Positions 18,300 through 19,949 of a DNA stretch of 64,000 bases are shown here, piece by piece. A program made the translations under genes and the position numbers. The notes under the pieces were generated by a model. The model worked only from the letters and a program-made list of their open reading frames with translations, had not been told where the DNA came from and made no database searches. The stretch lies in sequence record OL770107; one strand, given 5' to 3'. The stretch is from Escherichia phage CLB_P2. Positions within the stretch are counted from its first letter, which is position 1. Every line of letters starts with the position of its first letter.

Positions 18300-18772
18300 A
18301 TATTAAATTTGGACAAGTTATTCCTAAAGGGTATGTTCTTGAAATCGAAACCTGGGAAAATGATGGCGATAACTATAAAACCCAGACTATATTTGGCGTA
18401 GAAGAACACGAAATCCAACAGTACAAATATATCTTAGAACTTTTCCATGGTTCGCATTGCAACAGCCCGGATAAATGTGGTAATTCGGAATGGGACGTAG
18501 TTAAGCACTTGGTTATTGCCCACATTGAATCAGGTGTAAAATCAGGTCAGTTGACTCCTGAATTTTTAGATAAAGTCCTTGGTATCCAAGACTTAGAAGC
18601 TTTGCTGAATGACGATGAAGAAGAATACTACTTGAATGAAGCCCTTACTGAACTCCTCGGTATGGCTTGTGAATATGATGGCGATTTTATCCGTGTAATT
18701 TCTTATGTCAAGCTGTATATCATTGAAGAAGAAATTAAAATTCCTGATGTGAAAGCACTTGATATGCTTTAA
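18296..18772 (+). CDS. hypothetical protein
   Basis: ATG at 18296 overlapping upstream TGA (ATGA); 158 aa; acidic C-terminal half. Confidence 0.45.
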   Translation: MNIKFGQVIPKGYVLEIETWENDGDNYKTQTIFGVEEHEIQQYKYILELFHGSHCNSPDKCGNSEWDVVKHLVIAHIESGVKSGQLTPEFLDKVLGIQDLEALLNDDEEEYYLNEALTELLGMACEYDGDFIRVISYVKLYIIEEEIKIPDVKALDML

Positions 18773-18857
18773 GAATTATGTGATATTATTACTCTATCAT
18801 TAATACCCTCTATTACCAAAGGTTCTTCCCTCAAAGAGCCTTTCATAATAGAATTAA

Positions 18858-18931
18858 GGCCCTGTAGCTGGACGGTCAAGCGAGCGACTCATAATCGCTG
18901 GATGGTGGTTCGATTCCACCCAGGGCCACCA
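18858..18931 (+). tRNA. tRNA with CAT anticodon (Met, or Ile if lysidine-modified)
   Basis: 74 nt cloverleaf: 7-bp acceptor stem ggccctg/cagggcc, anticodon loop cTCATAa, T-arm ggtgg-ttcgatt-ccacc, encoded CCA. Confidence 0.75.
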
Positions 18932-18935
18932 ATTT

Positions 18936-19010
18936 GGATGTGTAGCTCAGCGGTAGAGCAGTTGACTGTTAATCAATTGGTCCATGGTTCGAATCCATGC
19001 ATGTCCGCCA
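18936..19010 (+). tRNA. tRNA-Asn (GTT)
   Basis: 75 nt: acceptor stem with two G-U pairs, anticodon loop cTGTTaa, T-arm catgg-ttcgaat-ccatg, encoded CCA. Confidence 0.7.
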
Positions 19011-19014
19011 AATA

Positions 19015-19090
19015 CGAGGCATAGCTCAGAAGGAAGAGCAAGGACCTTCTAAGTCCTGGGTCGTAGGTTCGATCCCTACTGTCTCGACCA
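19015..19090 (+). tRNA. tRNA-Arg (TCT)
   Basis: 76 nt: acceptor cgaggca/tgtctcg (one G-U), anticodon stem aggac/gtcct with loop cTTCTaa, T-arm gtagg-ttcgatc-cctac, CCA. Confidence 0.75.
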
Positions 19091-19257
19091 AACAAGAAAC
19101 CGGGTCGCTACCGGTAAGTCGTCGGACTGAAGTTCCCTGAATAAGACCCGACTTTAAGGCGTACATGAGTTCCTCTTAAAGTCCCTTATCTCACAGCTGA
19201 AACGGCGCACCGAACACTTGCCTAGCAGGTGGAACCCCGACAAGGTTACCCTAGGTT
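19091..19257 (+). ncRNA. candidate small stable RNA downstream of the tRNA cluster
   Basis: About 170 nt non-coding stretch with several local hairpins between the last tRNA and a strong terminator; no canonical T-loop; T4 encodes stable RNAs of unknown function in its tRNA region. Confidence 0.3.
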
Positions 19258-19288
19258 AAAGGCCCTTCCGAAAGGTTGGGCCTTTTTT
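19258..19288 (+). terminator. rho-independent terminator
   Basis: Stem ggccc/gggcc followed by TTTTTT. Confidence 0.6.
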
Positions 19289-19289
19289 G

Positions 19290-19297
19290 TATAAATA
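19290..19297 (+). promoter_or_regulatory. late promoter (TATAAATA)
   Basis: TATAAATA 29 nt upstream of the 19326 ATG. Confidence 0.5.
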
Positions 19298-19325
19298 GAT
19301 AAGTTAATTAACACAGGAAACAATA

Positions 19326-19949
19326 ATGAAAACTTACAATGAATTTTTGAACGAAAGCGTTCTGACTGAAGCCAGCGTGCGCATGACTAAAGATATGTGG
19401 CAAGCTGCTTATGATAAAATTTCCGGGACTAAAACCACTACCGAGTTCTTTAAAAACGTTTATGATATGTATGGTTTTGATACTAGTAACCAGAAAGAAT
19501 ATTACAAAGCTTCCAAAGCTTTTAAAGATATCGTAGCCGGTGGCGCTACTAAGCCCGCTAAACCAGCTAAAGCTCCTGTTGCTAAACCTGCAGCCCCAAC
19601 CAAAGTTGCACCACCTAAACCTGCTGCAGCGCCTAAAGCAGCGCCTGTAAAAGAAGCTCCTAAACCTAAAATCAAGTTCGACACCAGCACTATTGTTAAA
19701 AAATATAACCAACTGGCCTCTTTGGTTTCTGAAATCGAATCCGAAACTAAACATCTTGTTCGTGAATTCAACACTCTTCGTAATGGTCAACACATTAACA
19801 ACCTAGATACCCCGGACCTTTATCGTCTCTATCTGACGGTTGAAGGCCTTAAGTACACCCAGCCTATGCGCGAAGAAATTGATAACAAACTTCGTCAAGC
19901 ACGCCGACTGGCTGGTGACGCAGCTCAGTTCGAAAAGACCCGTAAATAA
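19326..19949 (+). CDS. internal-protein-like protein with capsid-targeting leader and Ala/Pro/Lys-rich linker
   Basis: N-terminus MKTYNEFLNE resembles the internal-protein leader; central PAKPAKAPVAKPAAPTKVAPPKPAAAPKAAP low-complexity basic segment; own late promoter. Confidence 0.55.
   Translation: MKTYNEFLNESVLTEASVRMTKDMWQAAYDKISGTKTTTEFFKNVYDMYGFDTSNQKEYYKASKAFKDIVAGGATKPAKPAKAPVAKPAAPTKVAPPKPAAAPKAAPVKEAPKPKIKFDTSTIVKKYNQLASLVSEIESETKHLVREFNTLRNGQHINNLDTPDLYRLYLTVEGLKYTQPMREEIDNKLRQARRLAGDAAQFEKTRK

Follow-up and report, generated by a model that had tools for sequence, protein, structure and literature searches.

In a 64,000-nucleotide (nt) stretch of the genome of Escherichia phage CLB_P2 (sequence record OL770107; hereafter the window), we identified a compact transfer RNA (tRNA) gene operon whose tRNA genes are followed by a copy of rnaD, the gene for the species 2 stable RNA of phage T4. 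Sequence, position, length and predicted fold together mark positions 19092-19211 of the window as an orthologue of T4 rnaD. The 581 nt around the region are 100% identical to Dhakavirus CLBP2, 99.5-99.8% identical to dhaeg, dhabil and IME08, and 97% identical to JS98; judged by its sequence, the compact operon belongs to a T4-like phage of the JS98 type (Dhakavirus). The reading that we favor as a whole, a Dhakavirus tRNA operon with an rnaD orthologue, a trailer, a terminator and a functional proposal of low confidence, is very probably correct.

The T4 annotation lists tRNA-Arg, rnaD (119 nt) and rnaC (139 nt) in this order. BLAST alignment of the window stretch to T4 rnaD gave 94.2% identity over nt 4-55 and 88.9% over nt 93-119, and the central ∼40 nt were unrelated. 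T4 rnaD (NC_000866 71053-71171, 119 nt) agrees with its window counterpart in strand, in its place 3′ of tRNA-Arg(UCU) and in length; its 5′ 50 nt and 3′ 27 nt are near-identical to those of the window, and four helices (P1-P4, described below) are common to both. The two differ in the apical ∼40 nt, where T4 has a hairpin (cassette B) that is non-homologous to that of the window (cassette A), at the 3′ end, which is ...ACCA in T4 and ...ACCG in the window, and in the 3′ neighbor, which is rnaC in T4 and a trailer with a terminator in the window. In the window, tRNA-Arg ends at 19090 and the homology to rnaD starts at 19092, on the same strand and in the same transcription unit.

An original prediction, made from the letters of the window, had proposed that about 170 nt of hairpin-rich sequence between the last tRNA and a strong terminator are non-coding and possibly equivalent to the T4 stable RNAs. 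The equivalence holds as far as rnaD is concerned; rnaC is missing, and 19212-19257 lies outside rnaD. The stretch is indeed non-coding in that 19091-19290 contains no plus-strand open reading frame (ORF) of at least 25 amino acids, and neither ARAGORN nor the Rfam tRNA clan gave any extra tRNA in 19091-19257. Neither T4 rnaC nor T4 rnaD is represented by a family in Rfam 15. Across the whole window the three tRNAs alone reach the gathering score of any Rfam family, and a scan of 18760-19340 at E≤10 returned no credible family and no tRNA-clan match in 19091-19290; the sub-threshold noise of that scan overlaps the tRNAs, except for a 12.2-bit match (gathering score 80.4) on the terminator hairpin. 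A search for host origin or mimicry found no match to 19091-19290 in 5,426 complete E. coli genomes. The 19091-19211 query matched 734 phage records; most of these are named after Escherichia or Shigella and some after Yersinia, Salmonella or Citrobacter. The name ‘rnaD’ is annotated beneath the match for T4 and for RB55; in all other records among the matches listed, rnaD is unannotated or overlaid with a ‘hypothetical protein’, and the same is true of the Dhakavirus records inspected.

The rnaD gene of the window has the following parts:

19092..19211, plus strand: orthologue of T4 rnaD (species 2 stable RNA), ∼120 nt, with ends placed from the T4 annotation to ±2 nt
19099..19115, plus strand: P1, a 5-base-pair hairpin ACCGG/CCGGU with an invariant 7-nt loop GUCGCUA, from the alignment
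19118..19210, plus strand: long arm, on which the minimum free energy (MFE), centroid and consensus structures agree
19118-19124 with 19203-19207 and 19209-19210, plus strand: P2, which buries the 3′ end
19131-19134 with 19195-19198, plus strand: P3
19138-19144 with 19186-19189 and 19191-19193, plus strand: P4
19145..19185, plus strand: apical hairpin (cassette A), a variable domain non-homologous to its T4, VR7 and IME341 counterparts

This structure was derived from an alignment of 28 distinct rnaD homologues, which belong to Tequatrovirus, Mosigvirus, Gaprivervirus and Dhakavirus where the taxonomy was seen. The RNAalifold consensus begins with hairpin P1 at the 5′ end; a long arm of P2, P3 and P4 follows, in which the 3′ end is paired. 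Both the MFE and the centroid structures of the window sequence alone match it. At the 23 pairs of the model, 97.4% of the alignment cells are paired, compared with 28-49% when the partners were slid. Changes on both sides of a pair were counted in 34 cells; the mean after shuffling was 10.3, and none of 500 shuffles reached 34. Five pairs covary, one in P1, one in P3 and three in P4. The closing pair of P1 is AU in 20, GC in 6 and GU in 2 of the 28 sequences, with the remaining P1 pairs invariant; one P3 pair is UA in 17 sequences and AU in 8; three P4 pairs are altered on both sides. It is conservation and covariation, not thermodynamics, that place the rnaD structure beyond chance. When the alignment was turned into a covariance model (R1), the sole match in the window was 19092-19211 (130.4 bits, E=2e-34).

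The fold also bears on the idea of rnaD as a degenerate tRNA, or a tRNA-like pseudogene, left over from a larger T-even cluster. Its location within a tRNA cluster and the partly tRNA-like nature of its T4 neighbor rnaC would fit such an origin. The tRNA searches of 19091-19290, however, were empty even at E≤10, and a 5′ hairpin followed by one long irregular arm, with no cloverleaf and no T-loop motif, is not what a decayed tRNA should look like; we regard a pseudogene as highly improbable. A hammerhead ribozyme, for which T4-type rnaD has the candidate strands CUGAUG...GAAA, was also considered and rejected. These strands flank the two-way P2/P3 internal loop and not a three-way junction, the window has CUGAAGU without A9, the motif is missing in UPEC01, and no Rfam hammerhead was found at E≤10. 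In UPEC01 (Gaprivervirus, locus L028 497-610) the P2/P3 internal loop GGACUGA/GAAA is replaced by a continuous helix GCCUG/CAGGC, and the loop is thus not universally required.

The apical hairpin exists in several unrelated versions among the relatives. Cassette A is carried by the window phage, JS98, IME08, SP18, VR25 and AlbertHofmann. Cassettes B (T4) and C (VR7), found also in phiC120 and others, are variants of one hairpin, and cassette D is carried by IME341, HY01, TH44 and UPEC01. Cassette A is the rarest, with 31 phage records, compared with ∼152 for D and 307 for the cassette C query. Every cassette occurs in more than one genus between invariant flanks, a pattern that points to their exchange by recombination between these flanks. 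A metagenome scan yielded 12 loci with the same cassettes throughout. A degenerate P1/P2 pattern matched 67 loci in IMG/VR; scoring with R1 left two new true matches, L076 and L078, with the rest of the new loci put down to chance in GC-rich contigs. Within reach of these searches, the rnaD family appears to be confined to Tequatrovirus, Mosigvirus, Gaprivervirus and Dhakavirus.

Two further explanations of the conserved stretch can be judged against the cassettes and the covarying pairs. One is a small protein encoded on the minus strand by an ORF at 19166..19026 (46 amino acids, with GAGGAACTC before the ATG). A strong Shine-Dalgarno (SD)-like sequence, GAGGAACTCATG, stands at good spacing at its beginning, but both the start codon and the SD are confined to cassette A, and the sequence at this place in cassettes B, C and D is unrelated. 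The ORF also runs antisense through tRNA-Arg, and the substitutions in rnaD compensate base pairs and are not codon-wise. We rejected it as probably spurious because of its restriction to cassette A, and a protein-coding role of this kind is barely credible. The other explanation places the conservation at the DNA level, the invariant blocks being targets of recombination or homing endonucleases that exchange the tRNA region between co-infecting phages. The region is an endonuclease and mosaicism hotspot that segB and other endonuclease ORFs adjoin, and the swapping of cassettes between invariant flanks is in keeping with this idea. Compensatory changes (AU to GC in P1, UA to AU in P3 and three pairs in P4) are nevertheless expected of RNA pairing and not of protein-DNA recognition, and rnaD is devoid of the published SegB site, the tRNA T-arm motif GGTTCRANTCC...CCAR (PMC2330249). 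We consider conservation of the DNA as such very unlikely to be the explanation.

The sequences that adjoin rnaD vary among the relatives. T4 rnaC (139 nt) gave no BLAST match in the window or in locus L006, and matched L001-L005, L007 and L008 at 98.6-100% identity. It is likewise lacking in JS98, IME341 and VR5-length contigs. The sequence that follows rnaC in T4 does occur in the window. At the junction, which is clean, T4 has ...GCGCACC-AAATTA, then rnaC, then CAAACACTTGCC, and the window has ...GCGCACC-GAACACTTGCC. The presence or absence of rnaC is independent of the cassette. Identity of rnaC (for example L003 2409-2547, minus strand) across Tequatrovirus, Mosigvirus and Gaprivervirus is 98.6-100%, far above the conservation of rnaD, and the 3′ half of rnaC is tRNA-like, being called ‘tRNA-Stop(tta)’ by ARAGORN in L076 980-1073 (minus strand) and giving a weak Rfam tRNA-Sec match. 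On the 5′ side, an ORF stands between tRNA-Arg and rnaD in Mosigvirus, SP18 and HY01-type phages. The sequence directly 5′ of rnaD in L006, L016, L018 and L019 ends in ...ACCGGCGCAACA, which resembles the rnaD 3′ end AACGGCGCACC and may be the footprint of an insertion or duplication; in L006 and L019 (IME341) an annotated endonuclease gene adjoins ACCGGCGCAACA.

Downstream of rnaD lie a conserved trailer and the terminator of the operon:

19212..19257, plus strand: conserved 3′ trailer, homologous to the T4 sequence 3′ of rnaC
19215-19221 with 19225-19231, plus strand: trailer hairpin T1, preceded by the linker GAA
19232-19245, plus strand: invariant single-stranded trailer segment GAACCCCGACAAGG
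19248-19256, plus strand: small trailer hairpin ACC-CUA-GGU
19260..19288, plus strand: intrinsic terminator of the tRNA/rnaD operon, AGGCCC UUCC GAAA GGUU GGGCCU plus U6

The T4 sequence 3′ of rnaC aligns to 19212-19288 with 83% identity over 78 nt. The trailer was found in 39 loci, in 22 distinct versions, and T1 shows one compensatory GC-to-AU change. A search of IMG/VR with the exact trailer motif gave a chance match in a coding region (L100) and a relative without rnaD (L099). In L099 (1600-1670, minus strand) rnaD is lost and the trailer is kept with the terminator, and in L010 (3540-3600, minus strand) an ORF is inserted after rnaD and the trailer is still beside the terminator. The trailer could be a small RNA in its own right, derived from the 3′ end, or an element that serves processing or stability. 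The predicted terminator is borne out: a GC-rich hairpin (outer stem 19260-19265 with 19278-19283) with a GAAA-capped inner stem is followed by U6 at 19283-19288. A simple terminator scanner missed it because the scanner's loop limit is 8 nt. The terminator is conserved, with the compensatory variants GGCCC/GGGCC and GCCCC/GGGGC, and the annotation of Yersinia phage fPS-90 has a terminator in the same position. Two bases past the U-run of the window begins the late-promoter-like TATAAATA (19290-19297), the T4 late-promoter consensus, which precedes a 207-amino-acid ORF at 19326-19949; in fPS-90 a late promoter is annotated there.

The start of the operon can be placed by a candidate promoter. 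MotA boxes follow the consensus (a/t)(a/t)(a/t)TGCTT(t/c)A and stand ∼12 base pairs upstream of a sigma-70 -10 hexamer. A box, a spacer and a hexamer that fit a MotA-dependent middle promoter were found upstream of the tRNA genes:

18762..18789, plus strand: putative MotA-type middle promoter of the tRNA operon, with its activity predicted from sequence
18762-18771, plus strand: MotA box ATATGCTTTA, followed by a 12-nt spacer and, at 18784-18789, the -10 hexamer TATTAT

T4 likewise has a middle promoter just upstream of its tRNA cluster, and a single ∼1.75-kb precursor from it covers the tRNAs and the species I and II RNAs (PMC2330249). By analogy, transcription from the putative promoter of the window would proceed through a leader, an Ile2-like CAU tRNA, the Asn GUU and Arg UCU tRNAs, rnaD and the trailer to the terminator, and rnaD would be made within the tRNA precursor. 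The 5′ end of rnaD would come from the host cleavage at the 3′ end of tRNA-Arg, and its 3′ end from cleavage or trimming within the GAA linker; alternatively, rnaD might stay fused to the trailer and terminator as an RNA of ∼197 nt. The RNA would accumulate because both of its ends are held in structure. It would then act in trans as a non-essential accessory RNA that binds a protein or nuclease; its invariant scaffold would provide the surface for binding, and its exchangeable apical hairpin would tune host-specific fitness. We hold this trans-acting binding and host-fitness function with low confidence.

The host-fitness role is proposed on the grounds of the cassette pattern and of a mutation in BW-1. 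When this T4-like phage was evolved on E. coli ECOR34, the sole mutation common to three lines lay in rnaD (PMC12685909); by arithmetic from the printed coordinates it falls at about rnaD nt 73, inside the apical hairpin. Put in its most specific form, rnaD may be modular, with an invariant P1 and P2-P4 scaffold and an apical cassette exchanged across four genera, and it may be the cassette that determines fitness on a given host, for instance by acting as a decoy for, or an inhibitor of, a nuclease or defence system that varies among host strains. The trailer (T1, GAACCCCGACAAGG and terminator) could in turn be an undescribed 3′-end-derived small RNA of T-even phages that travels independently of rnaD and rnaC. 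That a modular rnaD, a host-fitness cassette and a trailer small RNA should all hold jointly is doubtful.

It could instead be argued that the rnaD stretch is a by-product of processing, a 3′ trailer that protects tRNA-Arg or places the terminator, conserved for its processing signals. Such an account draws on the facts that rnaD is always co-transcribed with tRNAs or located upstream of the operon terminator, that it is lost in L099, and that its function has stayed unknown after 50 years (PMC3014915). It has more difficulty with phages of Mosigvirus, Gaprivervirus and the HY01 type, in which rnaD is intact though separated from tRNA-Arg by an ORF, and with the invariant 50-nt 5′ block and covarying helices, which far exceed the needs of a processing site. 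A discrete late RNA has also been reported for T4 rnaD: one study classes RNAC and RNAD of T4 as late RNAs and reports their validation by Northern blot, the sole phage riboprobe described being that for RNAC (PMC9697503). That a convergent adaptive single-nucleotide polymorphism (SNP) maps to rnaD (PMC12685909) is likewise hard to explain by processing. On balance we think a by-product unlikely.

Several observations weigh against the reading of the region as an operon with a functional rnaD. Although the stretch is as rich in hairpins as had been predicted, its thermodynamics alone is unremarkable: the folding z-score is -1.36 for 19091-19211, so that stability by itself is not exceptional, and -2.4 for 19091-19290, terminator included. 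P2 never varies and is therefore uninformative; covariation neither supports nor contradicts P2 and most of P1, and in p000v the P2 pair 29:123 is broken. Both the UPEC01 helix in place of the P2/P3 loop and locus L099, in which an ORF takes the place of rnaD and only its last 10 nt and the trailer remain, speak against a strongly required function. The mature ends of rnaD in Dhakavirus are assigned by homology only, and the biological role of the T4 stable RNAs is stated to be unknown (PMC3014915, PMC12685909). A search for antisense targets within the window, using the cassette-A loop and the trailer 14-mer, returned self-matches and one chance-level match with 3 mismatches. Neither rnaC nor rnaD is named in a CRISPRi-ART fitness screen of T4.

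The three-tRNA set of JS98-type phages and T4 rnaD as an RNA are already known; new are the unannotated copy of rnaD in Dhakavirus, its structure model, the reassignment of one tRNA to Ile2 (see below) and the cassette observation. As found, the main value lies in annotation, of rnaD and of the CAT tRNA label, and the covariation-supported model could be used to annotate the 734 matching phage records. If the cassette idea is true, the function of rnaD, open in T4 biology since the 1970s, becomes testable: the natural cassette swaps, the rnaC-minus state of the window phage and the adaptive SNP in a relative are ready genetic contrasts.

Upstream of rnaD, ARAGORN found exactly three tRNA genes in the whole window, all on the plus strand, 4 nt apart and with the CCA end encoded in each gene:

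18858..18931, plus strand: tRNA with anticodon CAT (ARAGORN; Rfam RF00005, 62.6 bits)
18936..19010, plus strand: tRNA-Asn (GTT) (ARAGORN; Rfam RF00005, 71 bits)
19015..19090, plus strand: tRNA-Arg (TCT), CCA end encoded (ARAGORN; Rfam RF00005, 63.8 bits)

ARAGORN and Rfam gave exactly these coordinates, which bears out the reduced set of CAT, Asn-GTT and Arg-TCT tRNAs in the original prediction. Its comparison with T4 was also correct: the T4 annotation lists eight tRNAs (Gln, Leu, Gly, Pro, Ser, Thr, Ile and Arg), and tRNA-Asn is not among them. A 2010 review gives three tRNA genes for JS98 and JS10 and eight for T4 (PMC2993671), and the three-tRNA set is thus a published property of JS98-type phages.

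The CAT tRNA is most likely tRNA-Ile2, with a CAU anticodon that would be modified to lysidine to read AUA, and not tRNA-Met. This assignment follows from its E. coli matches, shared stems, position in the tRNA-Ile slot and annotation in a Mosigvirus. The best E. coli matches, at 80.5% identity, are tRNAs annotated as tRNA-Ile by PGAP. The anticodon stem-loop GCGACTCATAATCGC equals that of the E. coli tRNA-Ile match, and the acceptor stem GGCCC/GGGCC is common to the two. The likeness to E. coli tRNA-Ile2 (ileX/ileY type) comprises the CAU anticodon, the GCGAC/UCGC anticodon stem and the acceptor pairs G1-C72 to C5-G68 within the 80.5% overall identity, whereas the D-arm and T-arm are unlike. 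In an alignment that included ileX, metT and fMet sequences, tRNA-Met and fMet differ from the CAT tRNA. The alignment shows the anticodon stem and the acceptor pairs C4-G69/C5-G68 of the tRNA-Ile2 type, and these acceptor pairs are reportedly TilS determinants, a result credited to Ikeuchi et al. 2005. The gene occupies the tRNA-Ile slot of T-even clusters, and in a curated Mosigvirus record the CAT tRNA in the corresponding position is annotated as tRNA-Ile for codon ATA, though in sequence that tRNA belongs with T4 tRNA-Ile and not with the type found in the window. In the annotated records inspected, the CAT tRNA carries the label tRNA-Met.

The long ORFs of the window use AUA at 10.6 and AGA at 6.3 per 1000 codons. 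Both codons are rare in E. coli. The tRNAs most likely supply AUA and AGA decoding, a role that fits this usage and the rarity of the two codons in the host. An anti-defence role of phage tRNAs has been documented in general (PMC11555353, PMC13096335).

The closest relatives of the operon are the T2/T6-like clusters of Tequatrovirus and Mosigvirus, which contain 10-11 tRNAs in the order Gln-Leu-Gly-Pro-Ser-Thr-CAT-Tyr-Asn-(His)-Arg (L013, L094). Their last members are orthologous, in the same order, to the three tRNAs of the window, and their promoter and leader are homologous to those of the window. The CAT tRNA is 92% identical to that of the 10-11-tRNA clusters; tRNA-Asn is 81-83% identical to its L013 and L094 counterparts and 91% to that of SP18; tRNA-Arg is 96-99% identical to those of L013, L094 and SP18 and 67% identical to T4 tRNA-Arg. 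Unlike these clusters, the window has no Gln-to-Thr block, no tRNA-Tyr or tRNA-His, and no segB or other endonuclease gene within the cluster. The block GCTTTAAGAATTATGTGWTATTATTA is conserved in the T4 region upstream of tRNA-Gln, in SP18 and in AlbertHofmann, and promoter and leader of the window are homologous to that T4 region. Given the homologies to T4 and to the 10-11-tRNA clusters, the window keeps the promoter, the leader and the 3′-terminal tRNAs of what was a larger cluster in an ancestor.

Many T2/T6-like phages have a tRNA-Asn. The site that the T4 homing endonuclease SegB prefers to cleave lies within this tRNA gene in T2L, RB1 and RB3, and in T4 the corresponding part of the tRNA cluster contains segB (PMC2330249). 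The SegB recognition elements GGTTCRANTCC...CCAR are present in tRNA-Asn (18980-19010) and in the CAT tRNA (18905-18931) of the window. With these elements present and a cluster without segB, the window phage would be a potential recipient of SegB homing in a mixed infection.

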